NCBI GenBank assembly: GCA_963764165.1
Contig: CAVXRD010000004.1
Location: 723,812 to 787,811 of the forward strand
Reading direction: 5' to 3'
Length of the DNA: 64,000 nucleotides
From: an uncultured Verrucomicrobiae bacterium
GTDB taxonomy: Bacteria > Verrucomicrobiota > Verrucomicrobiia > Limisphaerales > Palsa-1400
Under the pieces are notes generated by a model, which was given only the letters and a program-made list of their open reading frames with translations, was not told the DNA's origin and did no database searches. This document shows, one piece after another, positions 32,230 to 56,084 of the stretch (its first letter is position 1; the number at the start of each line of letters is the position of its first letter). Both the position numbers and the translations under genes were made by a program.

Positions 32230-32236
32230 ACGCCCG

Positions 32237-34241: not shown

Positions 34242-34242
34242 C

Positions 34243-34553: not shown

Positions 34554-34781
34554 ATGGGCAGAACACCCAAATCGCGGCGTGATGTTTTTGGAGCGTGGTT
34601 GCACCACTTGCGAACGGAGCAGGAATTGACGCAACAGAAACTGGCCGATTTAACCGGAATTTCCCAGCGTAACATCGCGTATTGGGAACGCTCCGGGAAA
34701 CTCAAGGGCCGCACGGAGATTCTCAAGTTGGCAAAAGCCCTGGGCGTCTCGGTGAAGGTGCTGCTGCGGGCGGATCGATAG
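34554..34781 (+). CDS. XRE-family HTH regulator
   Basis: LRTEQELTQQKLADLTGISQRNIAYWE...LAKALGVSV. Confidence 0.85.
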   Translation: MGRTPKSRRDVFGAWLHHLRTEQELTQQKLADLTGISQRNIAYWERSGKLKGRTEILKLAKALGVSVKVLLRADR

Positions 34782-35115: not shown

Positions 35116-35269
35116 TGCATCTCGAATATTAACGAAGCATGTCAACAATTACAACTTGCCGACGTATTGCACATTTTGAAAATGAACTTGTCAATGCTGA
35201 CCTCAAACTTGCCTCAAAGCGCAACTCTTGACGCCTACCGCGCCATTTCCCTGCTGATATTCTGGAGTG

Positions 35270-36187
35270 ATGGAGTCCAATCGTCTGCCCCGTTTCAATC
35301 GCGCCGCCGCCGTTGCCCCGATGCAGTTGACGGAACGTGACCGTGGCATCATCAAATGGGTGCGCGAGCACCGGCTTTTGCGTTCATCGCATATCGTGTC
35401 ACTCGCGGACGGAAGCCCCCAGCAGGTATTGCGGCGCCTGCAATTGCTGTATCATCACGGATTCCTGGAGCGTCCGCGCACACAGATTGAATATTACCAC
35501 CAAGGGGGTTCCCGCTCGGTCGTGTACGGCCTCGGAAAGGAAGGCGCGTCCGTATTGAATCGAAAGGCTGGAGGGGATAGCCAATTTTTCCAATCCGGCG
35601 GAAAGCCGCCTCCTGTGAGCCGACTCTTTTTTGAACATACCCTGTTTGTTTCCGACATCATGGTGGGTCTCGAACTGGCCTGCCGCAAAGCGGAGGGCAT
35701 CCGCCTGCTTGCGGGAGAGGAATTGCCCATCGCAGGCGGTCGCCAAAAGACATTCAAATTGAGAGTCAAGGTGAATAGCCAAGTCTCACTCGGCATCATT
35801 CCTGACTGCGTGTTTGCCATCGCCTTCGACGAGGAATCGCCCGACCGATCCCCCACCGTATATTTCCTCGAAGCCGACCGGGGGACGATGCCCATTGTCC
35901 GCACCAATCTTTCGCAGACCTCATTCTACCGGAAACTCCTCGCCTACCAGGCGGCATGGTCACAAGGCCTGCATCGTTCTCAATGCGGAATTCATCGGTT
36001 CCGGGTGCTCACGGTGACGACGAGCGCAGAGAGGGTGGAATCAATGATAGCTGCATGTTCAGAGTTGAAAAGCGGGCATGGCCTCTTTCTCTTTTGCGAT
36101 TGGGCTGCGTTGCAACAACACGGCCATATGCTCAGTGCGCCTTGGAAAACCGGCAGACGCGGAGAAGCCGCCAGTTTGTTGCCGTAG
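35270..36187 (+). CDS. Replication-relaxation (Replic_Relax) family protein
   Basis: LTERDRGII...HR wHTH start, EHTL, PD..F and FLEADRGT. Confidence 0.85.
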   Translation: MESNRLPRFNRAAAVAPMQLTERDRGIIKWVREHRLLRSSHIVSLADGSPQQVLRRLQLLYHHGFLERPRTQIEYYHQGGSRSVVYGLGKEGASVLNRKAGGDSQFFQSGGKPPPVSRLFFEHTLFVSDIMVGLELACRKAEGIRLLAGEELPIAGGRQKTFKLRVKVNSQVSLGIIPDCVFAIAFDEESPDRSPTVYFLEADRGTMPIVRTNLSQTSFYRKLLAYQAAWSQGLHRSQCGIHRFRVLTVTTSAERVESMIAACSELKSGHGLFLFCDWAALQQHGHMLSAPWKTGRRGEAASLLP

Positions 36188-36188
36188 A

Positions 36189-36296
36189 CGGCAATTCTTC
36201 CCTCCTACCGCGAACCCATTCCAAGGGATACCATATTCCCCGGAGACGGTGCATTTCGTGAGCCGCAATCAGTTCTTCATTAGCTCGTTGACAATT
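36189..36296 (+). promoter_or_regulatory. 108-bp repeated leader/promoter element, copy 1
   Basis: Gap-free alignment to 37686..37793; upstream of the WGR-ligase gene. Confidence 0.65.
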
Positions 36297-36404
36297 CACA
36301 CCAGAAATTCGAACTGATTGAATCGCGTCAGATCAGCGGCGCGAGAGGAATAGGATGCTCTGCTCTCCGGTCATTCAACAAAAACAACCCCACGAAGGGA
36401 AAAC

Positions 36405-37499
36405 ATGAACGCAACTATGAATCCGCCCGAGGCGGAATCCATCACCCTGTATTACCGAGAGGGTTCCTCGGACAAGGTATATCAATGCAGCATTGAGCCA
36501 AGCGGGCAATTATTCGTCGTCACCTTCGCCTACGGGCGCAGAGGCGCGACGATGCAGACGGGGACCAAAACATCAGCGCCGGTCGATTACGAGACGGCCA
36601 AGGGGATCTATCACAAACTCATCCGGGAGAAAACTGCCAAAGGGTACACCCCCGGCGCAGATGGCACGCCGCATTGGCAAACCAGAAATGAAGGGCGTGC
36701 CACAGAGATTCGACCGCAACTTCTCAACCCGATTGCGGAGCATGAGGTCGAAGGGTTCATCAAAGACACGGCCTGGTGCATGCAGGAGAAAAAGGATGGA
36801 AGGCGCATCTTGCTGCAAAAGCAAGGGGCTGCCATCCACGGGATCAACAAGAAGGGGCTGCTTGTCGGGTTGCCCTCACCGATAGTTCATCAGGCAGGTA
36901 AATTCGGGAGCGATGTCATCATCGATGGTGAAGGCGTCGGAGACGTGTTGTACGCGTTTGATCTGTTGAAACTCGGTGATCAATCCCTGGTCAGCCGACC
37001 CTACCAGGCACGTCTGGCATTGTTGACCGAATTGCTGAATGCCCCGTTCGTCACGTTCATTGAGGTGGTTGACACAGCCTTCGCCCCTGCCGAGAAGGCG
37101 ATCCTCTTCAACCGGCTCACGGAGGGCAGAAAAGAGGGCGTCGTGTTCAAGCGATTGGACGCGCCGTACACGCCGGGGAGGCCGGGAAGCGGCGGCACAC
37201 AACTCAAACACAAGTTCTGCGCCACCCTCTCAGCCGTTGTGGCAAAGGTCAACGCGCAACGCAGCGTAGAGGTCCGACTGTTCTCTCCCGACGGGTGGGT
37301 GACTGCCGGAAACGTCACCATTCCACCGAACCATGATGTTCCGAAGATCGGCGCAGTCGCGGAGATTAAATACCTCTACGCCATGCCGGCAAGCGGCTGT
37401 CTGTATCAGACGGTGTACTTGGGTGTGCGCACCGACGTGGAGACACATGAATGCGTCGTCTCGCAGTTGAAGTTCAGAGGGGATGACGACGAGGGATGA
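36405..37499 (+). CDS. WGR domain plus ATP-dependent DNA ligase-like protein
   Basis: SDKVY...YGRRG...KGY WGR domain; ligase motifs EKKDG, DGE, AFDLL and EGVVFK. Confidence 0.85.
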   Translation: MNATMNPPEAESITLYYREGSSDKVYQCSIEPSGQLFVVTFAYGRRGATMQTGTKTSAPVDYETAKGIYHKLIREKTAKGYTPGADGTPHWQTRNEGRATEIRPQLLNPIAEHEVEGFIKDTAWCMQEKKDGRRILLQKQGAAIHGINKKGLLVGLPSPIVHQAGKFGSDVIIDGEGVGDVLYAFDLLKLGDQSLVSRPYQARLALLTELLNAPFVTFIEVVDTAFAPAEKAILFNRLTEGRKEGVVFKRLDAPYTPGRPGSGGTQLKHKFCATLSAVVAKVNAQRSVEVRLFSPDGWVTAGNVTIPPNHDVPKIGAVAEIKYLYAMPASGCLYQTVYLGVRTDVETHECVVSQLKFRGDDDEG

Positions 37500-37588
37500 A
37501 CGTCAATGCTCATCCGAGCAACCGCACGCAGCCGCTCATACACAGGCAAAACAATCTTCTAACGCGTCTTGAATTCGAGAGATTCCAT

Positions 37589-37628
37589 AGCGCCAAACTT
37601 CACCGTGGAGGTGGGTCTGGCGCTTTTT
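37589..37628 (+). terminator. Probable intrinsic terminator
   Basis: Imperfect hairpin AGCGCCAAACTTCACC / GGTGGGTCTGGCGCT followed by a T run. Confidence 0.55.
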
Positions 37629-37685
37629 CTTAGAACGTGCGGAGTCTATTGCTGGTTGATTTATTGAGCCAATACTTGCCGTCGG

Positions 37686-37793
37686 CGGCAATTCTTACCT
37701 CCTACCCCGCTTCCGTTCCAGGGCATACTATATTCCCCGGAGACAGTTCATTTCGTGAGCCGTCCCTAGTTCTTCACCAGTTCGTTGACAATT
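37686..37793 (+). promoter_or_regulatory. 108-bp repeated leader/promoter element, copy 2
   Basis: Matches 36189..36296 and ends 16 nt before the primase ATG. Confidence 0.65.
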
Positions 37794-37809
37794 AACCCAA
37801 GGAATACCC

Positions 37810-38838
37810 ATGCCAAAAACAAAGTTCGTTGACTTCAAGGCCGTCAAATCAGCCATCACCATGGAGCAGGTGCTCAGGCACTACAACTTGCTTGATACGT
37901 TCAAGCGGAGTGGTGACAGCCTCTCCGGCCCATGCCCCATCCACAAAGGATCAAACCCGACGCAGTTTCGAGTGAGCGTTTCCAAGAATGTGTGGAATTG
38001 CTTTTCGGAATGTAAACATGGCGGCAACACCCTCGACTTCATCGCGAGGATGGACAATGTGAGCATCCACGCGGCGGCAGTCAGGGCCGTCGAATGGTTC
38101 AACCTCGATGCCGATGCTGTGGCTGCGGATTCCGAACCGGAACCCGAGGAAACCAATGGCAGATCGCATTCCGCAGAAAGCCCACGTCCGCGTCCGGCCT
38201 CAAGCACGCCAGTATTAGACAACGTCCCGCCCAACAAACCACTGAAATTCAAGTTGGACAAATTAGACCAGAATCATCCCGCGCTTGCGGAGCGCAAACT
38301 GACGCCCGAAACCATCAATGATTTCGGAATCGGTTTTTGTGCCAAAGGTATGATGGCGGATCGAATCGCCATCCCCATCCGCAATGCGGAGGGAGCGGTC
38401 GTTGCCTATGCAGGACGCTGGCCAGGAGAACCGGCAGAGGATACTCCCAAATACAAGCTGCCGCAGGGTTTCCGCAAATCGCTCGAACTGTTCAACATTG
38501 ATCGGGCGATCAAGGAACCGAGCGAGTTGCCTCTCGTCATCGTTGAGGGATTCTTCGGCACGATGACGCTCCACCAGCACGGCTGCCGCAAGGTCGTCGC
38601 CCTCATGGGCAGCACCATGTCGGCCGCCCAGGAGGGGTTGCTACGAAAGCATACCACGGCCAACAGCCAGGTCATCGTCATGCTGGACGAGGACGATGCG
38701 GGCCGGGCGGGACGCGAGGACATCGCGGTGCGCCTCTCCAGGTTCCTCTATGTGAAGGTTCATGCCTTCGCTGAGGAGGGACGGCAGCCGGAAAGCCTCA
38801 GCGCGGAAGAATTACTGGCCATATATCCGAAGGCATGA
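37810..38838 (+). CDS. DnaG-like primase (CHC2 zinc finger plus TOPRIM)
   Basis: CPIH...CFSEC, IVEGFF and MLDEDDAG. Confidence 0.9.
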   Translation: MPKTKFVDFKAVKSAITMEQVLRHYNLLDTFKRSGDSLSGPCPIHKGSNPTQFRVSVSKNVWNCFSECKHGGNTLDFIARMDNVSIHAAAVRAVEWFNLDADAVAADSEPEPEETNGRSHSAESPRPRPASSTPVLDNVPPNKPLKFKLDKLDQNHPALAERKLTPETINDFGIGFCAKGMMADRIAIPIRNAEGAVVAYAGRWPGEPAEDTPKYKLPQGFRKSLELFNIDRAIKEPSELPLVIVEGFFGTMTLHQHGCRKVVALMGSTMSAAQEGLLRKHTTANSQVIVMLDEDDAGRAGREDIAVRLSRFLYVKVHAFAEEGRQPESLSAEELLAIYPKA

Positions 38839-38841
38839 TCT

Positions 38842-39168
38842 ATGGACGTTCATTGTTCTACCTGCGGCGAGCCGTGGGATGTCTATCATCTCTGGCACGA
38901 CGCCATTTATGACGTGTTGCCGGATGACGAGGCTAAAGCCTGGTGTTCGCTTCCTCGTGAGAAAAAGCTCACGGAGGATTATCGGAAGGAATTCCGCAGC
39001 GCCGGCTGGGAATTCGGGCGGTCTATCATTAATGTCATCCGCTGCCCGGCGTGTCCCAAGGACACGAAGCCGGACGAGGAGAAAGTCCAAACCAAAGCTG
39101 CTATCGAGGAACTCTTGGGCGGCGACGAGGATGGATTGGCCGCCACATTCGAGGACTTCGGCCTATGA
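38842..39168 (+). CDS. Small Zn-finger hypothetical protein
   Basis: CSTCGEPWD...CPAC and DEDG. Confidence 0.7.
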   Translation: MDVHCSTCGEPWDVYHLWHDAIYDVLPDDEAKAWCSLPREKKLTEDYRKEFRSAGWEFGRSIINVIRCPACPKDTKPDEEKVQTKAAIEELLGGDEDGLAATFEDFGL

Positions 39169-39249
39169 ATCCCGAATGCACAAGCGAGAACCTCTCAGTT
39201 CTTCGTCGCGTCATCAGCACGGCTAAACCAAACAAGCCGAAAGGGCCAG

Positions 39250-39804
39250 ATGACGTTGCCCGAGGAACGCGGGGAGTTTCAGGGTGCCAGCGTGCGGCTC
39301 TATCAAGCCTTCAACTTGGAGACGCTGCTTGCCTATCCGTATGACTATTTCGGCGACATTCTCGCTGAGAATCGTCACGGACGCCACCTTGGCTTCTATC
39401 CCACCCCCATGGATGTCTCTGTCCTCATGGCAGAGATGACCTTGGGCGAGGAGGATGCGCGGGCCAAGAGCATCTGCGATCCGTGTGTCGGAACCGGACG
39501 GCTGCTCCTTGCGGCTTCAAATCGTTCCTACCGCCTCTATGGCAACGACATCAATCCAACGGTCATCAAGGCCACGCTCGTCAACGGCTTCCTCTATGCG
39601 CCGTGGCTCGTGCGTCCCTTCCCGTTTCTTGACCCGCCGCTCTGTGATCCGTCGCAAAGCCAGGAGGTGAGCGATGCCATCGCGGCCCAGGCGAACATCC
39701 AAGGCACCGAGCACGACGCTCGCGAGCAATGGAAGTTCGAGCCGATCAAAAAGCGACGACGAATCGGAGAGCCTGCTTCAGAGCAAGGCATTCTGTTTGG
39801 CTGA
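39250..39804 (+). CDS. N-6 DNA methylase-like protein, probably a fragment
   Basis: GFYPTP and DPCVGTGRLL SAM-binding motif; no NPPY/F motif seen. Confidence 0.6.
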   Translation: MTLPEERGEFQGASVRLYQAFNLETLLAYPYDYFGDILAENRHGRHLGFYPTPMDVSVLMAEMTLGEEDARAKSICDPCVGTGRLLLAASNRSYRLYGNDINPTVIKATLVNGFLYAPWLVRPFPFLDPPLCDPSQSQEVSDAIAAQANIQGTEHDAREQWKFEPIKKRRRIGEPASEQGILFG

Positions 39805-39967
39805 TTCAAACAACCTCTTTCCCACGGAAGAGGTTGCCCTTTTTCCAACGTGGCAGGGACTCCGCCACCATACCTCTCGCTGTCAACAAAGCGCCGTCCG
39901 CGCTTCCAGCAAGAGTATCTAACCAGAAGCAACCCGCAGGAACGGGTGGACGGCACAAGGAGAGTAT

Positions 39968-40219
39968 ATGGAACAGCAACCCGCGTTCAAGAGAGATGAC
40001 GGAAATCCACCCTCGAATCCGATAATCCCGTCAGATCGGACACCATCCCGTTCCCTCAAAGTCGAGGCGGACGGAGGCCGGTATGACAGGGCCATCAAAC
40101 CCAAAATACGGTTGAGGGGCAACTGGCTCGAACGGGCCGGATTCAAACCGGGAAGCCGGGTCAGTATAGTCTGCGTGGCTTCCGGCTTCATCGAATTGCG
40201 TTCGCAGGAGGCGGCATGA
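39968..40219 (+). CDS. SymE-like (AbrB-fold) toxin family protein
   Basis: PKIRLRGNWLERAGFKPG signature. Confidence 0.75.
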   Translation: MEQQPAFKRDDGNPPSNPIIPSDRTPSRSLKVEADGGRYDRAIKPKIRLRGNWLERAGFKPGSRVSIVCVASGFIELRSQEAA

Positions 40220-40525
40220 ATGAAAACCAAACGCAAACCCCATCAACCCAACCTGAACCAGCCGGAACTGGTCGGGTTGGTCTGGCGGCCACGGCAATTC
40301 CAGTTCCGACTCCGCGTCGGCGATGTCGTTCGCTTGGACAATCGGCTTTGCCGTGTTGTCAGGGTGAACGAATGCGCGGCGGTTCTCTTAATGAACCAGC
40401 CCGCGCGCCAGTTCAAGACCCGCTTTGACCGGCCCGTTAGGTTCGAGCTGCCACCATCATTGACGCGGGTTTCGTCCAACGCCGACCTTGAAATCCTGAA
40501 CCGCAAAGAAAGGAAATCCAGATGA
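40220..40525 (+). CDS. Hypothetical protein
   Basis: Starts immediately after the SymE-like stop; beta-rich SH3-like pattern LRVGDVV. Confidence 0.5.
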   Translation: MKTKRKPHQPNLNQPELVGLVWRPRQFQFRLRVGDVVRLDNRLCRVVRVNECAAVLLMNQPARQFKTRFDRPVRFELPPSLTRVSSNADLEILNRKERKSR

Positions 40526-40531
40526 GCACCA

Positions 40532-40795
40532 ATGCGTATGACCGAGAAAGGGGGCTTTGGTTCTGACCCGTATTGCCGGGAGGAACTGATCGCCGAAATC
40601 GGGGCAGCGTTTCTCTGCGGAGAGGCGGAGATGGGCGAGCGCACCATCGACAATTCGGCAGCGTATGTCGCTGAATGGTTGAAACGTCTCAAAGAGGACA
40701 AGAAACTGATCATTCAGGCGGCAGCACAAGCCCAACGGGCGGCGGACTTCGTTCTGGGTAGGATATTCGACGACAGCGCGTCGGCCCAAGACTGA
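40532..40795 (+). pseudogene. ardC: C-terminal fragment of an ArdC-like antirestriction/ssDNA-binding protein
   Basis: FGSDPYCREELIAEIGAAFLC...NSAAYV..WL...AAAQAQRAADF; the N-terminal domain is absent. Confidence 0.8.
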
Positions 40796-42021: not shown

Positions 42022-42237
42022 TCAGCCGAGTTCTCGACGTGCAGTGGCCAACTCCAATTCTAACGCATCCAAACATGCGAAAAAGGAATGACACTCGTCC
42101 TGCCAGGGACCTATAAATCTCGCCTGAAATTGTATCGCAACCTCATCCTTCCACGCGGCCTGGCATTCCAACCACGATGCCATAAATTGTGACCATTCTC
42201 GCCTAATCTCCTCATGTGTATCGGACGCATTACCCAT
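42022..42237 (-). CDS. Short WXG100-like protein
   Basis: Helix-WKD-helix (AAWKDEVAIQF); last gene of the FtsK cluster. Confidence 0.6.
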   Translation of the reverse strand: MGNASDTHEEIRREWSQFMASWLECQAAWKDEVAIQFQARFIGPWQDECHSFFACLDALELELATARRELG

Positions 42238-42316
42238 TTAATTTCCTATTTACGCAATTTAAAATACACGTCATAAACCAGTCGGCACTTCAAGCACTAC
42301 GTTGAATTTGCCAGCC

Positions 42317-42655
42317 TCATTTGTCATATTGATTGCCCCCTTGCTCATCAACTTCCTTCGGATGGCTAACGCGAACCAATCCCTTGAAACGGTTAGGCAA
42401 AGCGTCAAAAAACACACGCCCGTCACTTGGATATACACGGCGTGGTCCTGGCCCCCAAATCCCCTCCTTGATCAGCGATTTTGCGGTTAAGGGGTTGTCG
42501 AATGTTACCCCTTGTTTCTGGGACCACCACACCTTAGCCCTAACTTTAGGAGGGGTATGTTGATAATCCACTATATCTAGTTGTAAGATTTCGTCTCTCA
42601 TGGGCTCCGTTAGCGTATCATAAAAATTGGGACGGCGCAAGGCCCGACAGAACAT
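42317..42655 (-). CDS. Hypothetical protein; candidate immunity protein of the kinase effector
   Basis: TAATG stop/start overlap with the kinase gene (alternative start MRDEIL). Confidence 0.55.
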   Translation of the reverse strand: MFCRALRRPNFYDTLTEPMRDEILQLDIVDYQHTPPKVRAKVWWSQKQGVTFDNPLTAKSLIKEGIWGPGPRRVYPSDGRVFFDALPNRFKGLVRVSHPKEVDEQGGNQYDK

Positions 42656-43845
42656 TACCTGGTCAAATATCGGCCCCTTTCGAGAAGCAATGTGGCACGA
42701 TTTATCATGTGTCGAACGGCGTCACTGCCAACCAACTCCCTCAACTCGGGAGTCCATACGTTTTGAGTCTTCAAAAAGTGTGTTAGTCGATCGCGGCTCG
42801 CACGACTGATTTCCTCCCCGGCGGCCGGAGCCATCCGCCAATCAACTTCTCCGCTGGAGCTCAAGCAGTCCCCATTATCGATTAAAGCCAAGTCAATGCC
42901 GTCCGGTCGTTTTCGGAGCATCCAGTTGTCCCCGTGTCGATCAACGTGGCCGATAATCTCATCGAGGAGCTGCCAATCGTGGCGCTGCTCTTTACAAAGT
43001 CTATCGAGAACTGTATCGTCGAATTCACCAAGATCCTCCAGTTCTCCAAATGTTAGGTATCCACTTTGGAACAACTGCGCGCTACCAGTTCTGTTATTGT
43101 AGCGAATCACCTCGGTCGGTGGAACTAAGTGAAGGCCAAGAATGTCGTCTACTAGAGATGCTGCCTTTTCACGAAGATATCTTGTTCCTGGTGCGATACC
43201 GGGAAAATACCCTGATTGTTCACCATCACCCGGTTTAAATATCACTTGCAGATCATTCCTATCACTCGTTAGGCGGAAGGAATCATTTGCGTTATGCCCT
43301 TCGATCCGTTCGGCGGTAGTGAATCTAGCGTCTCTAATTTTCGCCCGAACACCTGGAGCCGTAATACTGAAGAGCAGGTTATCCATTGCGCACGAGTTAA
43401 AGATTGGAATCGATAACTCAGGTGCATCAATGTCCGCCTTTAAATAGGCTTCTAAATCCTCACCCGCACGATTCAAGAAGTCGCGAGCCTTGACCGAGTG
43501 TTCATCTGCCAAAGCCAACATTGTTCTGGAGTGCCGTCGATACGCATTGGACGCGACCGAAAGATCGTTGATCCTACGTTTGATACTGTCAAGATCTTCC
43601 TCAACTCCTTCAAGTCGCCTCTGCTGCCATCTCGTGTCTTCATCTTCGTCCGCGGAATCAATTTGATCTTGCAGGTTAGAAATCTTGCGATGTAAGTCAC
43701 TTCGCCGATCTTCCAAGTCGTCCATCACGCGCTGGATTTGAGTGTCTATGAATAGCAAGCGCTCTTTAACGGAAGTTGCCCACCGGCGGCAGGCATTTTC
43801 CATGTTTTGAATTGCCTCGACACTGGCATTGACTCCGTCGCTCAT
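42655..43845 (-). CDS. WXG/LXG-like helical N-terminus fused to a PI3K/PI4K/HipA-like kinase domain; candidate effector
   Basis: ~135-aa coiled coil, then IFKP, REKAA, VPPT, GSAQLF, DRHGDNW and LIDNG. Confidence 0.8.
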   Translation of the reverse strand: MSDGVNASVEAIQNMENACRRWATSVKERLLFIDTQIQRVMDDLEDRRSDLHRKISNLQDQIDSADEDEDTRWQQRRLEGVEEDLDSIKRRINDLSVASNAYRRHSRTMLALADEHSVKARDFLNRAGEDLEAYLKADIDAPELSIPIFNSCAMDNLLFSITAPGVRAKIRDARFTTAERIEGHNANDSFRLTSDRNDLQVIFKPGDGEQSGYFPGIAPGTRYLREKAASLVDDILGLHLVPPTEVIRYNNRTGSAQLFQSGYLTFGELEDLGEFDDTVLDRLCKEQRHDWQLLDEIIGHVDRHGDNWMLRKRPDGIDLALIDNGDCLSSSGEVDWRMAPAAGEEISRASRDRLTHFLKTQNVWTPELRELVGSDAVRHMINRATLLLERGRYLTR

Positions 43846-43859
43846 GGAAGCAAATAGAT

Positions 43860-44138
43860 TTAACGTCTATGCAAATATTTTTCGGCTAAAGATGCTTTCT
43901 CCCTGAGAAAGTCGGCATATTTGGTGCCGAGGCTATTCAGCTTATTGATGTCATCAATACAAGACTCCAGTCTTCGCCTAAAAACCGTGTATTTATCATC
44001 CTTCCAGACGGCATTCGCGGTAGCTACGGCTTCTCGCATTTGTTTCGTGCGACCGCGAAGGCGTTTGATCGATTCTTCCAACGAATCGGCGAAATGTTTA
44101 ACATGTGCCGGGGAAACGATAGCAGTTTGAGAGCTCAT
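43860..44138 (-). CDS. WXG100-like protein
   Basis: 92-aa helical hairpin with central WKD and C-terminal AEKYL. Confidence 0.8.
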   Translation of the reverse strand: MSSQTAIVSPAHVKHFADSLEESIKRLRGRTKQMREAVATANAVWKDDKYTVFRRRLESCIDDINKLNSLGTKYADFLREKASLAEKYLHRR

Positions 44139-44425
44139 AGCGTATCTGGGGCCTTTTTCAAATAGTTGAACAAAAGAAGTGCATCCTCCCTGAGCTCCGG
44201 TTCCCGCTTCTTGATTTCCTCGCTCAAGTGCTCGATCTCCGTTTTACTTCGGTCAACAAGTTGTTTGAATTTTTCGTAGCCTTCATCTTGCCATGTGGTG
44301 CCGAGGCTCTTCAGGCCATTGTCAAGTGTGCCCATTTCTGTGATGATCCCATTCACGAAATCACGAAGATCATCAGCCAGCGAAATGAGCCGTTCCGGGT
44401 TAGCGTGGAGTTCTTCTTCTGTCAT
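44135..44425 (-). CDS. WXG100-like protein
   Basis: 96 aa; ANPERL...LGTTWQDEGYEKF. ATGA overlap with the next gene. Confidence 0.85.
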   Translation of the reverse strand: MTEEELHANPERLISLADDLRDFVNGIITEMGTLDNGLKSLGTTWQDEGYEKFKQLVDRSKTEIEHLSEEIKKREPELREDALLLFNYLKKAPDTL

Positions 44426-44447
44426 AGCAATTCAGTTTAGCGATTCA

Positions 44448-47400
44448 TCAGATTGACTCTTTTGGGCGGGATTGGAGACGGACGGCAAGTTTCTCGATCC
44501 AGGGCACTGTCGGCATCGCATACGGACGAAATGTCAAAAACTGGCCAGGTCGATCTTCGTCGCTGAAAATCATTCGATGCGGCTTAGAAAGTCGCGACGC
44601 TATGGGACTGTCAAAAACGTTCATAGAATCCTCAGCAGACATCACTCCGCCAGTGCGAAGACCGAATTCTCCAAATCTCTTCCGCCCAATCCCCCGCGTG
44701 GCGTTCGCCCATGTGTCTGCCCAAGCGATAACATGCACACCCAACTCCGGGCCGTCACGCAAAATCGCGCTGAAAAGTTCGACGGCATTATGTCCGTCCT
44801 CATCGTCGCCATCTTCCCGCAATGATTTAATCCTATGCATCCCACGGAGGACGAGGTAGATGCTCTCGCGGCGCTCGGGCTTATCGCTCCGAATGCGAAG
44901 TTCTTGTTCAATTTCTGACAACATTGAAGCGACTTCGCGTTGCAAGTTGACGATTCTGAAAGTGGCCGAAAAGGACCGCCGAATAGCCTCGATTTGATCC
45001 CTCCCTTCGCTATCGGGACTTGAGAAATCCGCAACAATAATTCGCACCCTATCAGGCAAATGCTGAAGGAGAATACTCAGAATCACAAGCAAACTCGCGC
45101 ATGCCCCTTCGCTCTCATCACGAGAAACGATCATTAAGTTGCGTCCGCTTTGACGGCGGATCCGGGCGGTCACAGGAGGGCGTATTGCAATGGCCTCACC
45201 CAAAAGAAGATCGATGCTCGTTGATTGAACGGGCCAAGTGGTCAGGTTGATTAACCCGTTCAGGAAAGCACATTCATCAACTTTTGCGAGTTCGTTGCCC
45301 TCAAAAACTATCGGCCTGGCAAGAACGCCTCGCTCGCGCGCCAATCGCGAAATCGTTTCCAGGCACTTTTGTCGATCCTCATCTTTGAAGAGTGCGACCT
45401 GGAACAAACTGTTGCCTTCAATTGTGCCCGTGCTGGCATTGTAGATTGCTTCACCAGGCCGCGAGAGCATTCGTGCCGCGGCGTTGTCGCTGGCCAAAAC
45501 CAAATGAGAGTCCGTTTCGCTGCATTGCATCGCAATCCGAATTCCCATTTGATCAATAGTTGTCCTAGGCAGGTTTTGGGCGCCGCCAAGCGTTTGCGAC
45601 CCGAGAAGCACATGCAATCCAAAAGCCCGGCCTTGGCGCACCAGTCGATCCAAAAGCAAGGCAGCCTCTCGTGCTACAGCGTCGTCTTCCGCGAACAATT
45701 CTTGGAACTCATCAATTAGAAGCAATACACGAGGAGTGCGCACGTTCGAACTTTTCTTGCGAAATTCAGAAATATTCGCCACCCCGGCGGCGCGGAATCG
45801 ATCCCCGCGCTCCTTCAATTCGTTATCGAGCCGTTGGATAACGCTTAGACCGAATTCGCGCTCGCTTTCCACCGCAATGGTGAGCGCGTGAGGCAGCTTG
45901 TGATCGGCATACGCCTTAAATTCGACACCTTTCTTAAAGTCGATAAGATAAAACTGTATCTCATCCGGAGGATAGAAGAGAGCCAACGTCGTGATAATGA
46001 CGTGCATCAAATTGCTCTTTCCCGAGCCAGGGCGTCCCACAATCAATCCATGGTGGCCAAGGCCCTCACCCATAACCAAATACTGCAATTTTCCCGCCCC
46101 GGCAGGCCCGATAGGTATCTTCAACGACGATGCCGTGCTGCCCCGCCACCATTTACTTTCATTAAGCTCCGCCAACGCAAGCAGCTTTTCATAAGGCACC
46201 TCAACCTTCATTTTTGACTTCGCTTCTGATCCAGATTCTGACACAATGAACTTCAGGAGCGGTTTGGGAGGCGGTTGGTCTAACATGAGCGTGCATTCCT
46301 TCATGCCCGCCTCGTCCCATACAAAGTGCTCAGCTTGGAAACCCTCTGAGCTTGCGCGATCTTCTGGCATCGCGATTTTGATACTGCTCGCCGCGCCGGC
46401 ATCGCGAAGCTTCTTCATTGCCTGCTCCGCCTCAGCCGACGAAAGCCCACGAACCACGATCTCTTTTTCTTGTAACAGGCGCAGCGTAGCCTGTTCATGG
46501 CTCAAACCTGAATTGATTTCGGAAAGCGCAACCGACACATTTTCCCTCGCCCCAACTGGCACGGGTTTTATCCGAACATCAAAAGTGATGTTCGGCTCCG
46601 TTGCCTCGTTTTGGGCTCGGTCCGATGAAATAACATTATCCGTGCTTTCTACAATGCGCGTTGCACACGTCTCTAAGTCGGCCACGTTAAATTTATGCGG
46701 CACCGGTGCATTAACGTCTCGGACGATAAGGGTAAATACGCCGCACCGAGGTCCATTCTTTACAATGCTGACCAATCTTCGCACCGCGTCGTCCGAAAAA
46801 TTTACCGGGAAGTCAAAGATAATGAGAAAGCGAAAAGGTTCTGCAACATCTTGCGCCTCCTTGTTGTATTCCGTAATTGAAGGAAAATCGTTCCGAAGAT
46901 ACTTTTGGATAACGGTTTCCATATGGTCAGACAACTCGCTAAGACGAGTTTCAATGTGTCGTGGCTCTGTCCATGCCCTTCCGCTAATCAATGCCTCCTC
47001 GTGATCGGCAAGTGACATGTAGTCCGCCACGTTTTGCCCCAAACCCACCGGATCAATGAATGTGAAACGCAACTTGCCCGGAGGAGTATTGGCAAGCATC
47101 CGCAGCATAACCGACTGGACGGCTTTCCCGGCAATGTCCTTCGCCCTGCCTTTTGCTTCCAATAACAGACAACGGCCCTCAACAAACGGAATTAAGGCGG
47201 GCAGGCAAAAGTCGAACGTGATGGTCGGCAATTTTTGTTTCAAGTCAGGTGCCTCTATCGATAAAGTTCCAATGCGGGCAGCAAACTCAGGTGAAGGGTC
47301 TGGAAACCAATTTTCCCAATTTTTTGAATGCCAATCATCTCCAGCATACAAACTCATTTGCTTGAGTGTCTCAGTTTCCTTATGGAGTGCATTTGCACAA

Positions 47401-48326
47401 TTTCCAAAATAAGTGGCGATTTCCAAAACCTCCGAATCGTGTTTGTCTATGACACATTGGGCCTCCCGTTCGAATTCACTGTTGGCCTGCGTTGTCATCC
47501 GCGTGCATTCATCCTCCGCAGCATCCAACCCCGCACTACAGATAAGCTTCGCTGGCATCAAACGGCTATCCTCAAGGGACTTCACCGCGGTGTCGAATGC
47601 TGTTTGTAGCTGACCCAGCAAGGGCTTTAACATTATATGATTTCTCGAACACAAATTAACCACGCGACAATACTGGCCCTGTATTGCTTTTTCCCAGAAT
47701 AACTGCCAAATGAATACCAGTGCAACCCATGTCAGAACTAAGGGGGGGAAGATTAAGAGCAAGATCGCTGATACAATCACAATGGCCCATCGCCAACCGG
47801 TCTCCTTTGGCCAATATATAGGTTTTCTGCTATAAAATAGTTCTTTAAACCTTTTATCAAATGTTTCTATTTCCGCGAGTCTAGTGTCGATTTCGGCATC
47901 TGTTGTAATTACAACGGACGACGAATCTTCCTGTGCCGCCATTTGCAGCGCTTTCTTCCCGAGAAGGCTTTTTGCTTCATTGGGGAGCTGGATGGTGATT
48001 GCGATTGCGGCCTTGACCCGCGCCTCTTTTCGATGATACTCGGCCTTCAAATCCTCCAAGGCGGCCCGATAGGCATTCTCCGCCCGCGAAAAATCTCTTT
48101 TTACGTTGTTAACGGTTTCCGAGCGCTTTGCTTGTGCGGCTTGCAGGGCCGCGTCACGTTGTGTTTCTGCAGCACTCAAGCCCCTATCTTTATTTTTTTC
48201 TGCATCTTCCAATCTCTTCCGGCATGGAGCAATTAAGTCCGTGAGGATTCGAGTGACAAGCACCCGCATCTGGATTGGCAACTTGAATTCTGATACACCG
48301 TCATAAGGTTGTTTCGTTGTTGTCAT
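44448..48326 (-). CDS. FtsK/SpoIIIE (EccC/EssC-like) multi-domain ATPase with a TM hairpin
   Basis: Coiled coil plus TM, degenerate domain 1 (FIDPVGLG), intact domain 2 (GRPGSGKS, LIDFKKG, IDEFQ, RQGRAFGLH..L.SQ) and degenerate domain 3. Confidence 0.9.
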   Translation of the reverse strand: MTTTKQPYDGVSEFKLPIQMRVLVTRILTDLIAPCRKRLEDAEKNKDRGLSAAETQRDAALQAAQAKRSETVNNVKRDFSRAENAYRAALEDLKAEYHRKEARVKAAIAITIQLPNEAKSLLGKKALQMAAQEDSSSVVITTDAEIDTRLAEIETFDKRFKELFYSRKPIYWPKETGWRWAIVIVSAILLLIFPPLVLTWVALVFIWQLFWEKAIQGQYCRVVNLCSRNHIMLKPLLGQLQTAFDTAVKSLEDSRLMPAKLICSAGLDAAEDECTRMTTQANSEFEREAQCVIDKHDSEVLEIATYFGNCANALHKETETLKQMSLYAGDDWHSKNWENWFPDPSPEFAARIGTLSIEAPDLKQKLPTITFDFCLPALIPFVEGRCLLLEAKGRAKDIAGKAVQSVMLRMLANTPPGKLRFTFIDPVGLGQNVADYMSLADHEEALISGRAWTEPRHIETRLSELSDHMETVIQKYLRNDFPSITEYNKEAQDVAEPFRFLIIFDFPVNFSDDAVRRLVSIVKNGPRCGVFTLIVRDVNAPVPHKFNVADLETCATRIVESTDNVISSDRAQNEATEPNITFDVRIKPVPVGARENVSVALSEINSGLSHEQATLRLLQEKEIVVRGLSSAEAEQAMKKLRDAGAASSIKIAMPEDRASSEGFQAEHFVWDEAGMKECTLMLDQPPPKPLLKFIVSESGSEAKSKMKVEVPYEKLLALAELNESKWWRGSTASSLKIPIGPAGAGKLQYLVMGEGLGHHGLIVGRPGSGKSNLMHVIITTLALFYPPDEIQFYLIDFKKGVEFKAYADHKLPHALTIAVESEREFGLSVIQRLDNELKERGDRFRAAGVANISEFRKKSSNVRTPRVLLLIDEFQELFAEDDAVAREAALLLDRLVRQGRAFGLHVLLGSQTLGGAQNLPRTTIDQMGIRIAMQCSETDSHLVLASDNAAARMLSRPGEAIYNASTGTIEGNSLFQVALFKDEDRQKCLETISRLARERGVLARPIVFEGNELAKVDECAFLNGLINLTTWPVQSTSIDLLLGEAIAIRPPVTARIRRQSGRNLMIVSRDESEGACASLLVILSILLQHLPDRVRIIVADFSSPDSEGRDQIEAIRRSFSATFRIVNLQREVASMLSEIEQELRIRSDKPERRESIYLVLRGMHRIKSLREDGDDEDGHNAVELFSAILRDGPELGVHVIAWADTWANATRGIGRKRFGEFGLRTGGVMSAEDSMNVFDSPIASRLSKPHRMIFSDEDRPGQFLTFRPYAMPTVPWIEKLAVRLQSRPKESI

Positions 48327-50383: not shown

Positions 50384-51139
50384 ATGGCGGAAATCAAGCC
50401 AAAAAAATACGAATTTTTCCGAGACATTTTTGACTTCGTTTTTGGAATCGAAAACAAACGAGGCGATATTCTGGATCACTGGATTACCTTTATTGACAGC
50501 TTTAGCTTCCCGCCGCAGGACTTCTACGCAGCCATCGAAAAAGAGTTGGAATCCAGAAAAATCCCCAGCATGGCAATGTTTCGGGAAGAATTCGCCGAGG
50601 GTGGAGTGCTCTCAGACAAACGCATTTATTTGAGGATGTTTCGCGAACGCCTCGCGATATATAGCTGCGCCATGCCATTTGGCAGCGGCTATGTTTTTTC
50701 CTGCCGCACGATCTACGTTCCCGCCCTCGTAAGGCTTTGGCACATCCTCGCGACACTCGTCTTTTTCTCGATTGTCGGCGGACTGTTACAAATGCTGTTA
50801 GGGACGACGTTCGCCGTCATCGCCACCGTTGGCTTGGTGTTCGCATTGGCCGGAGTGTTTCGCAATGCCGCCGCTTCAGCAGTGACCAATCTTGATGCTG
50901 TGCTCCTGCGGATACCCGTCGTATCTACAATTTATGAGGACTGGTTCAGGGAAGAGACGTATTACCGCGTTGACACGAGACTCGTGTATTTGAAGCGCAT
51001 CCCGGAATTAATCCGGGAGACGGCAGAGCACATCGTTGCTGCTAAAGGTGCGAGTTTGACCGATCAATTCGAACGCACGCCCATCTTTGGCGATCTTTAC
51101 AAGCGTCGGATGCCGGCAAGCCCGGAAGAAAAGACCTGA
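50384..51139 (+). CDS. Hypothetical membrane protein coupled to the large VirD4-like gene
   Basis: ATG 50384, two TM helices, stop 1 nt before the next ATG. Confidence 0.7.
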   Translation: MAEIKPKKYEFFRDIFDFVFGIENKRGDILDHWITFIDSFSFPPQDFYAAIEKELESRKIPSMAMFREEFAEGGVLSDKRIYLRMFRERLAIYSCAMPFGSGYVFSCRTIYVPALVRLWHILATLVFFSIVGGLLQMLLGTTFAVIATVGLVFALAGVFRNAAASAVTNLDAVLLRIPVVSTIYEDWFREETYYRVDTRLVYLKRIPELIRETAEHIVAAKGASLTDQFERTPIFGDLYKRRMPASPEEKT

Positions 51140-51140
51140 T

Positions 51141-54100
51141 ATGCCGGACGCGCATGAGCAGTTCTCCGAACAGTTTCGCACATGGGAGCGGCGAGGACGG
51201 GGCTGGCAGGTATTTCCGGAACCAATTTCGCCAGAGCCGCCTTTTCGCCCATTCACCGGGCACTTTCTTACCGAAACCGCAGCTATTGATGATGGGCGAA
51301 GGCCCACATTCCTCAGCTCTCTCGTTCGGAAATTAGGGCGAAGGCTTTCCACGCTGCCAGAGCCGACGCCAGTTCCGGCACAGCCGGAGACGGAACCCGA
51401 ACCAGACCTGCTTGAGCGCGACACCTTAGTTGAATTGCAAACTTCTTTGCCAGCCGAGCTTGATATTCATCGGGACGCTTTTGAAGAGTTTTTCTTGAGC
51501 CTGTCTTTTTGCGAGGAGCCTATTGCCTTTGAATTGCTTGGCGTTCCCGACCGTATCACGGCGCAATTTGTCGCGAATTCCGGCGACGCTTCCCTTGTGC
51601 AGCGTCAGCTCCGGTCGTATTTCCCCGAAGCTGTGTTCCAGCCACACGCAAACACACTCATTGACGCGTGGAATTCGTGCGCGGCGGAAGAATCATTGGT
51701 CATCGAATTTGGCCTTCGCCGCGAATTCATGTTTTCCTTGCGAAGCGGCAAGCTTGATCCCTTTATCGGCATTGTAGGGGCACTTTCGGAACTTCAAGAG
51801 AATGAATTCGGCCTGTTTCAAGTGATATGGCAGCCTGCCCGCCATCCGTGGCAGGAAAGCATTCTGAATTCAGTTTTGGGTGGCGATGGCAAACCATTTT
51901 TTGTCAATGTCCCCGAACTGGCCAAGGCTGCGGAGTCAAAATCTGCGCTTCCTATATTTGCCGCCGTCGTGCGCGTCCTAATATGCGCCGAAAGTTTTCC
52001 GAGAACCCTCAAATTGGCTCGCGATCTTGCAGGCGCACTCTCGGTATTTTCCGATCCGTCCGGGAATGAATTGATTCCCCTCAACAACGAGGATTATCCC
52101 CTGCCCGAACATATTGAGGACACGCTGCGCCGTCAGTCGAGACGGACAGGAATGATTCTCAACAGCGACGAACTCATCGGACTCGTCCATTTGCCGGGCA
52201 GTGCCGTTCAATCGCCAGCTTTTCAGCGACAGGGCGGCACGACAAGAGCAGCCCCTGCAACCGTCCGGCACGACAAGGGTTTGTTTCTTGGATACAACGA
52301 CCACATCGGCGAGTCGGTTGCTGTGCAACTTTCGCCGGAACAACGGGTTCGTCATATGCACGTCATCGGCGCAAGCGGAACCGGAAAATCGACGCTGCTT
52401 TTCAATATTATCAAACAAGGCATTGAAGACGGCGAGGGCATTGCTGTTTTCGACCCTCATGGTGATTTGGTAGAGAGAGTTCTGGGAATCGTGCCGGAAG
52501 CCCGTATTGATGACGTAGTCCTTGTTGACCCATCCGACGAACACTATGCCGTGGGATTCAATGTTCTGGCGGCGCATTCCGAGCTTGAAAAGACGCTCCT
52601 GGCATCCGACTTGGTATCTGTCTTTCAACGCTTGAGCACGTCTTGGGGCGATCAAATGACGAGTGTGCTACAGAATGCGATCTTGGCGTTTTTGGAAAGT
52701 GGCGTAGGCGGGACAATTGCCGACTTGCGCCGTTTCCTTATCGAGCCCGCCTTCCGCGCCCAATTCCTGAAATCGGTTCAGGATTCCGAAGTCGTGTATT
52801 ACTGGAAGCAAGGATTTCCGCACTTAACTGGCACGAAATCCATCGGCCCAATTCTCATCCGGCTTGATACGTTGCTCGCCAAGAAGCCTATCCGCCACAT
52901 GGTTTCTCAAGGGGAAAATCGCCTCGACTTTGCCCACATCATGGATTCTGGAAAAATATTTCTGGCAAAATTGCCGGAAGGGCTTTTAGGCCGGGAAAAC
53001 TCTCATCTCATCGGCTCGCTTCTCATTTCAAAATTCCAGCAGACAGCCATGAGCCGCCAGGCGCAGCATATCGCCGCCCGCCGTGACTACTGGATCGTAA
53101 TCGACGAGTTCGCCAATTTTATCACGCCGTCGATGGCGGAGATCCTTTCCGGCGCACGCAAATACCGGATTGGCCTCACGCTCGCGCACCAGGAATTGCA
53201 TCAGTTGCAGCGCAGTTCGGACGTGGCGAGCGCGGTCATGTCGCATCCCTTCACCCGTGTTGTTTTCCGTGTCGGGGATGACGACGCCAAAAAGCTCGCG
53301 GAAGGTTTTTCACATTTTGAAGCGAAAGATTTGCGCAATCTCGAAACTGGCCACGCACTTTGCCGTGTGGAGCGCAGCGACTTCGATTTTAATCTTCGCG
53401 TCCCGCTTCCCTCACCAGCGAACGATGAAGAGGCGGCTTCGCGGCGCGAGGAAGTCATCACGGCTTCGAGAAATAAATATGGGCGTCTCAAATCAGAAAT
53501 CGAGGCGCAATTGCGGGCCAAGCTTGAAACGGCTTCCTCAGAGAACCAAAGCTCGAAAACTGCACATCAGTCGGTTCGGAAAGATGCGGAACCGAAACCT
53601 GTTCCGATGCCTGCGGAAGTTCCGAAAACAGTCATCACGGAACTTCTCGCAAGAAGCGCGGAGCCGCAACCGGTGGCTTCCGAAACCAAAGTTGTCAATC
53701 CCGAAGCCAACGTGGCGCGGGACTTGGGGCGCGGCGGGGCGCAACATCAAGCAATCCAGCAGAGAATCAAAACAGCAGCGGAGGAACAAGGCTTTCGGGC
53801 AACCATCGAAAGGCAAGTTCTCGACGGATTAGGAAGTATTGATTTGCTGTTGGAACGTTCAGACCAGACCATCGCTTGTGAGATTACCATTACCACGTCA
53901 ATAGACCAAGAGGTCGGAAACATTTCAAAGTGTGCTCGCGCCGGATTTGAAGAAATCGCGATGATTTCGGTCGCCGAAGATAAGCTGCGAAAAATCGAAT
54001 CGGCAGTGGCGGCAAGTCTTGGGCCTGACGCTGCGAGAAGGGTCAAATATTTCCTGCCCGATGCGTTCATCGAGCGGCTACGTATGACGCCTCCAGTCCC

Positions 54101-54251
54101 AAAGCCAGCCGCAGAACCGGAGGTTTTCGAAAGTCGCGGGCGCCGCATCAGACGCTCATTGGCGACGATGCCGCCCGCAGAACAGAAAAGACGAGACGAG
54201 GAAGCACGCCGAGCGATGGCCGAGGCAATGCGAACGAAGCCTAAGCCATGA
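51141..54251 (+). CDS. Large VirD4/TraD-like coupling ATPase with N- and C-terminal extensions
   Basis: HMHVIGASGTGKS, FDPHGD, IDEFANF and ARKY...HQ. C-terminal PD-(D/E)xK-like H...IDLLL...IACE. Confidence 0.85.
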   Translation: MPDAHEQFSEQFRTWERRGRGWQVFPEPISPEPPFRPFTGHFLTETAAIDDGRRPTFLSSLVRKLGRRLSTLPEPTPVPAQPETEPEPDLLERDTLVELQTSLPAELDIHRDAFEEFFLSLSFCEEPIAFELLGVPDRITAQFVANSGDASLVQRQLRSYFPEAVFQPHANTLIDAWNSCAAEESLVIEFGLRREFMFSLRSGKLDPFIGIVGALSELQENEFGLFQVIWQPARHPWQESILNSVLGGDGKPFFVNVPELAKAAESKSALPIFAAVVRVLICAESFPRTLKLARDLAGALSVFSDPSGNELIPLNNEDYPLPEHIEDTLRRQSRRTGMILNSDELIGLVHLPGSAVQSPAFQRQGGTTRAAPATVRHDKGLFLGYNDHIGESVAVQLSPEQRVRHMHVIGASGTGKSTLLFNIIKQGIEDGEGIAVFDPHGDLVERVLGIVPEARIDDVVLVDPSDEHYAVGFNVLAAHSELEKTLLASDLVSVFQRLSTSWGDQMTSVLQNAILAFLESGVGGTIADLRRFLIEPAFRAQFLKSVQDSEVVYYWKQGFPHLTGTKSIGPILIRLDTLLAKKPIRHMVSQGENRLDFAHIMDSGKIFLAKLPEGLLGRENSHLIGSLLISKFQQTAMSRQAQHIAARRDYWIVIDEFANFITPSMAEILSGARKYRIGLTLAHQELHQLQRSSDVASAVMSHPFTRVVFRVGDDDAKKLAEGFSHFEAKDLRNLETGHALCRVERSDFDFNLRVPLPSPANDEEAASRREEVITASRNKYGRLKSEIEAQLRAKLETASSENQSSKTAHQSVRKDAEPKPVPMPAEVPKTVITELLARSAEPQPVASETKVVNPEANVARDLGRGGAQHQAIQQRIKTAAEEQGFRATIERQVLDGLGSIDLLLERSDQTIACEITITTSIDQEVGNISKCARAGFEEIAMISVAEDKLRKIESAVAASLGPDAARRVKYFLPDAFIERLRMTPPVPKPAAEPEVFESRGRRIRRSLATMPPAEQKRRDEEARRAMAEAMRTKPKP

Positions 54252-54491: not shown

Positions 54492-54572
54492 TCCACGAGG
54501 GTGCATAAAGTTAGGTGAATTGCAAACTTTTTTCTTGCATGTTCAGTGTGTTTTTTGATAGGAAGTAGTGGT

Positions 54573-56084
54573 ATGAAGGAAAATAGTGCTCAGACGACGG
54601 TCGCGATTCCTGTTGCCATCTGGATTCGAGTGTCAACCGAAGACCAAGCCAAAGGAGAAAGCCCGGAGCGGCACGAGGCGCGTGCTCGGCTGTATGCCGA
54701 GGCCAAAGGCTGGAATGTCGTCCAGGTCTATCATCTTGAGGGCGTCAGCGGGAAATCAGTAACCGAGCATCCCGAGTGCCGCAAGATGCTTGAAGACGTT
54801 CGTTCAGGGCGGATTAAGGCTTTGATCTTCTCGAAGCTTGCGCGGCTGGCGCGAAATACTCGTGAATTGCTGGATTTCGCTGATATTTTTCGAGATTGCA
54901 ACTGCGACCTCATTTCGCTGCAAGAGTCGATTGACACATCGACCCCTGCTGGCCGCCTATTTTACACAATGATCGCTGCGATGGCCCAATGGGAGCGCGA
55001 GGAAACTGTTGAACGTGTCAAAGCATCAGTCGTCATTCGGGCCAAGCTCGGAAGCCCGCTCGGTGGCCCAGCCCCATTCGGATACCACTGGAAAGAGAAG
55101 AAGCTTGCGCCGCACCCGAGTGAAGCGCCTGTGCGCAAGCTGATATATGACCTGTTCCTTGAGCACAAGCGTAAGAAAACTGTCGTCCGGCTGCTGAACG
55201 ATGCAGGCCACCGCACGCGCAATGGAAGCCGGTTCACTGCCAAGACGGTGGGCAGGCTGCTGCAAGACCCCACCGCCAAGGGCATCCACCGAGCCAACTA
55301 CACCACTCGTGACGGCAAGGCCAAACGCTGGCACCTTAAGGACGAAAGCCATTGGGTTACGACGCCCGTTGATCCAATTGTCAGCACCGAGCTTTGGGAT
55401 CAATGCAATGCGATTTTGGAACAGACGACATGCGGCGAACGCCGAGCGACCAAGAAAGCGGTGCAACTGTTCGCTGGAATCGCCCATTGTGATTGCGGCG
55501 AGAAGATGTATGTGCCGGTCAATTCACCCAAATATGTTTGCCGAAAGTGCCGAAACAAAATTCCCGTCGTCGATCTCGAAGGTTTCTTTGCCGACGAAAT
55601 CAAGGCATTTTCCCTCTCGCCGGAGCAAATCAACGCTCACCTGTGCGAAGCGGACAAAACCATTGCGGAAAAAGAAGAGTTGCTCCGGCTGCAACTTGCC
55701 GACCAAAGGAAATTGCAGGGGGAGATAACGAACGTCTATCGGCTGTTTCAGGAAGGCCAGATCGATTCGAAGGGCTTCGGCAAATTTTATCAGCCTTTGG
55801 ACGAGCGCGGAAAACAATTGGAACAGAGCATCCCGAAGCTCCAAGCCGAGATTGACCTCGCGAAAGTGAATGGCGCATCAGCCGAGGAAGTGGTTTCCGA
55901 AGCCCGGAACCTCGCCGATCATTGGCCTCAGATGGACACCGCCGAAAAGCGCACCATCGTTGAAACAATCACCGAGAAGATCACCATCGGCAAAAAAGAC
56001 ATCGCGTTCAGCTTCTACTACCTCCCTCACGGGAAAGAAGTGACAAAAGGGTGGCGGAAGGGGTGGGATTCGAACCCACGTTAG
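54573..56084 (+). CDS. Large serine recombinase (integrase of the island); last codons overlap tRNA-Ser antisense
   Basis: WIRVSTEDQ, RLARN, PFGY, CDCG...CRKC and a coiled coil; ends WRKGWDSNPR. Confidence 0.93.
   Translation: MKENSAQTTVAIPVAIWIRVSTEDQAKGESPERHEARARLYAEAKGWNVVQVYHLEGVSGKSVTEHPECRKMLEDVRSGRIKALIFSKLARLARNTRELLDFADIFRDCNCDLISLQESIDTSTPAGRLFYTMIAAMAQWEREETVERVKASVVIRAKLGSPLGGPAPFGYHWKEKKLAPHPSEAPVRKLIYDLFLEHKRKKTVVRLLNDAGHRTRNGSRFTAKTVGRLLQDPTAKGIHRANYTTRDGKAKRWHLKDESHWVTTPVDPIVSTELWDQCNAILEQTTCGERRATKKAVQLFAGIAHCDCGEKMYVPVNSPKYVCRKCRNKIPVVDLEGFFADEIKAFSLSPEQINAHLCEADKTIAEKEELLRLQLADQRKLQGEITNVYRLFQEGQIDSKGFGKFYQPLDERGKQLEQSIPKLQAEIDLAKVNGASAEEVVSEARNLADHWPQMDTAEKRTIVETITEKITIGKKDIAFSFYYLPHGKEVTKGWRKGWDSNPR

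Follow-up and report, generated by a model that had tools for sequence, protein, structure and literature searches.

The closest described relatives of the locus considered here are the type VII secretion systems (T7SS) and the reduced, type VII-like gene sets that comparative genomics has recorded in diderm bacteria, and what is said of them here and below holds for those portions of the cited papers that were drawn on. D2-only systems of Verrucomicrobia and other phyla have been termed 'mobile versions of T7SS' (Zhang 2012, PMC3482391, Table 1 footnote 6), with T7SS-linked toxins given as confined to three phyla. A WxG protein and an FtsK ATPase have been named as the minimal set, together with which an HNH nuclease is listed (Uchiyama 2016, PMC4978471), a version with a coiled-coil-nuclease protein is placed within defence operons (Bell 2024, PMC11090510), and a survey of T7SS variants deals with Gram-positive ones only (Garrett 2024, PMC11217815). 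The locus lies in a stretch of 64,000 nucleotides (nt), in the following the window, from an uncultured Verrucomicrobiae bacterium (GenBank assembly GCA_963764165.1, contig CAVXRD010000004.1). Six open reading frames (ORFs) follow one another there on the minus strand (42022-48326), encoding an EssC/EccC-like ATPase, two small WXG100-family proteins with a W-x-D motif (WxD-1 and WxD-2), a carrier fused to a kinase, a small protein, and a third W-x-D protein (WxD-3; Table 1). An earlier interpretation of the letters alone, here called the sequence-only reading, had described this run, and all six ORFs are where it had placed them. It overrated the novelty of the core, which Zhang 2012, Uchiyama 2016 and Bell 2024 already describe in diderm bacteria, Verrucomicrobia included. 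What appears to be new is the swapping of toxin-like tips in the clade of the window and an apparently undescribed pair of kinase and immunity protein. The module is best read, with about an even chance of this being correct, as a minimal export system for polymorphic toxins whose kinase acts in a rival bacterium.

The ATPase matches FtsK_SpoIIIE and resembles EccCa (E 9e-37) and EssC (E 8e-29), although it stays well under the cut-off with these two models, and also under that of EccCb. Its N-terminal helical region has a single hydrophobic peak (residues 188-206), and of its three ATPase-like domains only the middle one carries a Walker A (764-771) and a Walker B motif (867-875). This Walker A motif is found in all 65 aligned ATPases, which represent about half of the 126 full-length relatives, and the degenerate flanking domains are devoid of it; the hydrophobic segment is shared by 106 of the 126. 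Whereas canonical T7SS are defined by four C-terminal NTPase domains, one Walker A/B pair lies here between two degenerate domains. The protein is most probably a membrane-bound relative of EccC/EssC, with an anchor predicted from the hydrophobic segment. In the rest of the host genome, the only other ATPase match is 25% identical, and EsaA, EssB, EsaB/YukD, EccB and EccD have no match at all genome-wide (controls were positive; EssA and MycP were outside this search), which agrees with the view of the sequence-only reading that this is a minimal module without canonical partners and led to the rejection of a canonical T7SS elsewhere in the host. Copies of the ATPase were not detected among viral contigs, and phage records contain one unannotated partial match. 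Directly upstream of the ATPase gene, a PEGA-domain membrane protein is encoded (48421-50331, minus strand), which was not seen near other loci of the family and has a 56% identical copy in a sister element of the host genome (on contig C2, see below), where it shares its ORF with a tyrosine integrase domain.

The genes of WxD-1 and WxD-2 overlap by 4 nt, and a scan for promoters and terminators gave a result at chance level. WxD-1 passes the PF06013 cut-off as the sole WXG100 match of the host genome. A WxD-2 profile of 39 sequences matches the structure of HP0062 (3fx7, E 7e-15) and also those of EsxB and EsxA. WxD-3 is modelled as a two-helix hairpin with the motif at the turn (predicted local distance difference test, pLDDT, 92) and aligns with the WXG profile (hhalign 91%) and weakly with EsxA (E 8e-4); a Foldseek search with the model gave no significant match, as is expected for a two-helix hairpin. 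The assumed WXG100 kinship of the small proteins is thus borne out by profiles and model. All three indeed have the W-x-D motif (W45-Q-D47, W45-K-D47 and W29-K-D31 in WxD-1, -2 and -3), which cannot be taken as a peculiarity of this locus, as the residue after W-x is an aspartate in 129 of the 130 short and in all 131 long small proteins of the family, where W-x-D therefore is the norm. The sequence-only reading had also seen a WXG-like protein fused to a kinase. The kinase is fused, but the N-terminus is a coiled-coil carrier of 140 residues with neither WxG nor WxD motif, which resembles WXG100 proteins only weakly (hhalign 71%, 39 columns) and retrieves no matches as a single-sequence query.

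The carrier is present in 132 of 180 fetched loci, and as the same gene set recurs in these, the arrangement is not a matter of chance; its profile retrieves 3,266 clusters at 50% identity. Among 136 carrier matches, 116 have tails of less than 100 residues and 20 have longer ones, one of them a frameshift artefact. The remaining 19 bear real C-terminal tips of seven kinds, just as the suggestion of polymorphic effectors in homologous loci had foreseen: ParB-like (7, by motif and one weak Pfam match), restriction-fold-like (3, by eye), Imm33-like (3), ADP-ribosyltransferase (2, confirmed by Pfam in locus L145), HExxH peptidase-like (2, by eye), JAB-like (1, by eye), and Tox-GHH (1, confirmed by Pfam in locus L153). 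The clade of the window itself combines the conserved carrier with kinase, ParB-like, ADP-ribosyltransferase and peptidase-like tips, and thus swaps its C-termini; the locus with the JAB-like tip shares the gene order but is not placed within this clade. A small gene lies between the tip and the short WxD gene in four of 18 assessable loci (L147, L148, L153, L162). In the same slot, a Helicobacter plasmid has a WHH nuclease and SMI1/KNR4, and a Caballeronia plasmid has a nuclease-like protein and a small gene. The carriers of these two plasmids match the carrier profile not at all and weakly (E 2e-4), respectively, and are equivalents by position, not proven homologues. An Imm33-like domain in toxin position ends the carriers of loci L031 and L063 (both planctomycete), of L179 and of many of P0026-P0138.

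The kinase tip scores 25.3 bits with PF00454, just short of the cut-off of 27.1, and has the catalytic motifs of this type of kinase, namely the Lys, the Glu, D302-R-H-x-x-N307, and DxG. K204, E226, D302, R303 and N307 are invariant in the 38 kinases compared, and D323 is present in 37 of them. The model (pLDDT 96) is closest to the structures of PI4KII alpha and beta (E 3e-12, template modelling score 0.69), followed by H. pylori CtkA and Fam20, so that the domain has a PI4K-II-like fold with conserved catalytic residues. The substrate may be a protein or a lipid. Of the 37 homologues, 11 reside on the same carrier and 17 on MuF or minor-capsid proteins of phages. A kinase lacking the C-terminal subdomain has been described in polyvalent proteins, and this appears to be a different family, as far as the portion of that paper goes (Iyer 2017, PMC5512222).

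The gene of the small protein overlaps the kinase stop codon by 1 nt, and its inner ATG gives a length nearer to that of its relatives. As a single query, the protein retrieves only itself, with no match in Atlas, Pfam or PHROG, but its family is encoded directly 3' of the kinase in all six non-T7 loci examined (five viral and one genomic, one near-duplicate viral locus being left out), where the kinase is carried by MuF, portal or polyvalent proteins. Leave-one-out profiles regain all seven members with E<=3e-4 among 13,784 ORFs (best decoy 0.53), and in 401 genomes of the phylum the family is found twice, both times adjoining the kinase. Co-folding lends weak support to the pairing, with a score of 0.43 against 0.01 for the best control, at least 90% of contacts shared between runs, and a partner pLDDT of at least 83; solved pairs attain the mark in 116 of 157 cases and mismatches in 2 of 215, but scores of up to 0.60 include only 18 of these solved pairs and both mismatches. 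Because the family travels with the kinase tip across unrelated carriers, the small protein is likely the cognate immunity protein, as which the sequence-only reading had proposed it; it might alternatively be a chaperone or activator. The two define a candidate toxin-immunity family that would span phages and a type VII-like module. The literature searched, mostly without subscription papers, contains no account of this pair, which supplements may list.

As the closest structures are those of PI4KII and then CtkA, the kinase could also be an exported effector against eukaryotes whose substrates are phosphoinositides of a protist predator or host, and tips without immunity genes would fit such non-self targets. 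With 22% identity, however, the likeness to PI4KII does not fix the substrate, and the kinase has retained a small partner of its own and is also found on head proteins of phages, both of which indicate a bacterial target and make an anti-eukaryotic function highly improbable.

If the module exports its toxin, the carrier and the WxD proteins would form a helical bundle, in analogy to LXG-Lap and Esx pairs, and the ATPase, with its predicted membrane anchor, would likely bind this bundle and push it across the inner membrane. The outer membrane would have to be passed as well, by way of vesicles, upon lysis or through a channel borrowed from the host, all of which are guesses, and the delivered kinase would likely be toxic in the cytoplasm of bacteria that do not possess the product of the neighbouring gene, the likely immunity protein. 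Several observations weigh against such an export. The surroundings of the core contain no recurrent accessory or outer-membrane gene (the largest neighbour cluster covers 15 of 169 loci, by which a conserved accessory gene was rejected), 116 of the 136 carrier matches are tip-less, so that the core is maintained in the absence of a toxin, an intervening small gene is missing after 14 of the 18 assessable tips, and three tips are Imm33-like and thus of an immunity type. The hydrophobic segment is absent from 20 of the 126 full-length ATPases, transmembrane-less versions reside inside defence operons according to the part of Bell 2024 used here (PMC11090510), and the literature searched contains no functional or experimental test of the module.

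Most of these points would suit an intracellular defence or addiction system, in which the carrier-toxin is caged by the WxD proteins until phage infection or loss of the island prompts the ATPase to free or activate it, whereupon the host cell becomes dormant or dies. The neighbourhoods of some relatives agree with this, since the Caballeronia plasmid has vWA, PP2C, kinase and CARF genes beside the module, locus L147 has JAB and ThiF genes upstream, L143 has a DUF3584 SMC-like gene downstream, and relatives are reported from TerY-P and CoCoNuT operons (in the portions used of PMC4978471 and PMC11090510); in the sister elements of the host genome, the cargo slot holds DUF3800 and proteasome-fold genes. 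On the other hand, most ATPases, that of the window included, retain the hydrophobic segment, and characterised WXG100 proteins are secreted. The pair of kinase and small gene is found elsewhere on proteins that are delivered into another cell (MuF, portal, polyvalent), and PADLOC yields nothing beyond generic matches for the ATPase and a single weak one for the kinase. As an outer-membrane step is missing, most carriers are tip-less, tips occur without immunity genes and ATPases without an anchor, a defence or addiction function has to be kept in mind, but it is rather unlikely. Returning to export, it may tentatively be proposed that one ATPase and three or four small helical proteins make up a complete toxin exporter of Gram-negative-type bacteria, a minimal T7SS that trades toxin/immunity cassettes with head proteins of phages, among them an undescribed PI4K-like antibacterial kinase and an inhibitor family belonging to it. 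The locus bears on the question whether an EssC-type ATPase needs no more than Esx proteins to export a protein, and in what way two membranes would be crossed, which concerns a family of more than 3,000 carrier clusters at 50% identity. The locus makes this question testable, as its six genes supply a read-out in the form of a likely toxin and its likely antidote.

Table 1. Features of the module and of the surrounding island (positions in the window).
Feature	Position	Strand	Basis or remark
EssC/EccC-like FtsK ATPase, 1292 aa	44448..48326	-	PF01580 121 bits, domain and motif analysis
WxD-1, WXG100-family protein, 96 aa	44135..44425	-	PF06013 28.3 bits, cut-off 27.3
WxD-2, WXG100-family protein, 92 aa, HP0062-like	43860..44138	-	family profile against known structures
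Carrier-kinase fusion ORF	42655..43845	-	coiled-coil carrier and kinase tip
Coiled-coil carrier domain, residues 1-140	43426..43845	-	belongs to the conserved core of the family
PI4K-II-like kinase tip, about residues 160-396	42655..43368	-	homologues, conserved residues, structure model
Small gene, 112 aa (94 aa from ATG 42601), likely cognate immunity	42317..42655	-	linkage to kinase
WxD-3, short helical hairpin, 71 aa, conserved carrier partner gene	42022..42237	-	motif, profiles, model
Mobile backbone: TrwB-like ATPase, Replic_Relax protein, ligase, primase, methylase fragment, SymE, ArdC-type peptidase fragment	30925..40795	+	
Second TrwB/TraD-like coupling ATPase of backbone	51087..54251	+	
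Large serine recombinase	54546..56084	+	3' end overlaps tRNA-Ser end of island
tRNA-Ser(CGA), likely integration site	56052..56141	-	
Copy of tRNA 3' end, 13 nt, likely far attachment site of island or nest of islands	8434..8446	-	

The cassette is situated between a backbone with primase, relaxase-like and coupling-protein genes and the gene of a serine recombinase, the end of which lies in tRNA-Ser(CGA); the GC content of the cassette of 49.7% differs from the 55.9% of the mobile backbone and the 57% of the flanks. The cassette thus lies in an island, likely integrated at the tRNA-Ser, in line with the mobile element assumed before. The 13-nt copy of the tRNA is weak evidence alone, but its flank is repeated upstream of the window (88% over 69 nt), which suggests tandem islands, and a second recombinase at 16760 points to a possible nesting of islands. 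On contigs C1 (at about 1.554-1.574 Mb) and C2 (at about 0.865-0.877 Mb) of the host genome, two sister elements share the backbone and have DUF3800, proteasome-fold and insertion sequence (IS) genes in place of the cassette; their cargo includes ArdC-JAB. With two TrwB-like ATPases and a relaxase-like gene flanking the cassette, the carrier-kinase might enter recipients together with the island DNA, through the conjugative coupling proteins or its own ATPase, and aid establishment as phage MuF effectors do. The tip repertoire would agree with this, as it overlaps that of proteins co-delivered with DNA (Iyer 2017, in the portion used of PMC5512222). Such a delivery is nevertheless quite improbable, since the sister elements lack the cassette, most relatives reside in non-mobile neighbourhoods, and a scan of 54 ORFs of the window revealed no mating-pair genes.

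Other parts of the island carry further cargo. A JAB peptidase and an E1-E2 (ThiF) gene with matches to Cap2-type models of CBASS (12279-14418, minus strand), bracketed by 81% identical direct repeats (11795-11957 and 14911-15076), and an HsdR-N/ATPase gene (9169-11688, minus strand) are defence cargo at the far island end. An RHS protein that is split over several ORFs with small downstream genes, adjoining IS66 (22363-28821, minus strand), apparently represents a second, broken polymorphic toxin locus. The region 58990-64000 is 99% identical to the ends of contigs C1 and C5 and may be a duplication or an assembly overlap.

The host genome (7.0 Mb, 97% complete) has a single 16S gene that exactly matches the Verrucomicrobia probe EUB338-III and has one and two mismatches to the other two probes, which supports the Verrucomicrobiota-like host supposed before. 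A search for sequencing runs yielded none. A ClpV-type ATPase above the TIGR03345 cut-off (C2:2507029-2509656) hints at a type VI system of this host, and ten tRNA-like genes are clustered at C2:1559019-1567965, which is typical of a mobile element. In a GTDB scan, at least 482 of 600 pattern-matching stretches were confirmed, the best 80 of which are mostly from Planctomycetota. The ATPase is matched in 17 of 401 genomes of the phylum, in 20 of 61 relatives (the own genome counted) and in none of four genomes of the same genus. In a quick tree of the last ATPase domain, with 74 rows drawn from 170 eligible loci and the window and with support only from the Shimodaira-Hasegawa-like approximate likelihood ratio test (SH-aLRT), the window falls into a 10-row clade (SH-aLRT 99) with the order ATPase-WxD-WxD-carrier, and a separate 27-row clade (100) holds 19 of the 20 fetched Verrucomicrobiota loci, with tip-less carriers. 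The module was likely acquired from outside the host lineage. A conjugative plasmid of Rhodococcus (L223:3721-9151) encodes the ATPase, a carrier with ParB-like tip and two WxD genes, and the module thus also reaches Actinomycetota.

Compared with the described systems, the locus appears to belong to the mobile solo-WXG/D2-only ATPase class of diderms, with which it shares the ATPase domains active in the middle, the WXG100-like proteins with a carrier, and the patchy and mobile occurrence. The solo-WXG systems with YueA-like ATPase of Zhang 2012 are likewise diderm (Verrucomicrobia, Planctomycetes) and mobile, with three FtsK/HerA domains of which the middle one is active (PMC3482391). The systems of Bell 2024 and Uchiyama 2016 have in common with it a D2-only ATPase, two WXG100-like proteins, a coiled-coil protein with toxin-like domain and a small gene thereafter, but their ATPases are described as having no transmembrane helices, and they have a nuclease tip and are part of defence operons (PMC11090510, PMC4978471), whereas in the window the ATPase has the hydrophobic segment, the WxD proteins number three, the tip is a kinase, and neither TerY-P nor McrBC is found in the neighbourhood. 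The HP0062/HP0066 set of H. pylori also combines a WxD-type WXG100 protein with an FtsK ATPase, but differs in gene order and ATPase clade and has a linked HNH nuclease instead of the kinase. A helical carrier with variable tip, small helical partners and a downstream immunity gene are known from the LXG toxin-Lap-immunity sets of T7SSb and from T7SSc-j, which in contrast reside in monoderm hosts and have four NTPase domains and extra membrane and ubiquitin-like components, none of which was found here (as given in the part used of PMC11217815). The MuF and portal polymorphic effectors of phages, finally, share with the module both the kinase domain and the small gene downstream of it, but they are delivered from a phage head, whereas the kinase of the window sits on an Esx-type module.

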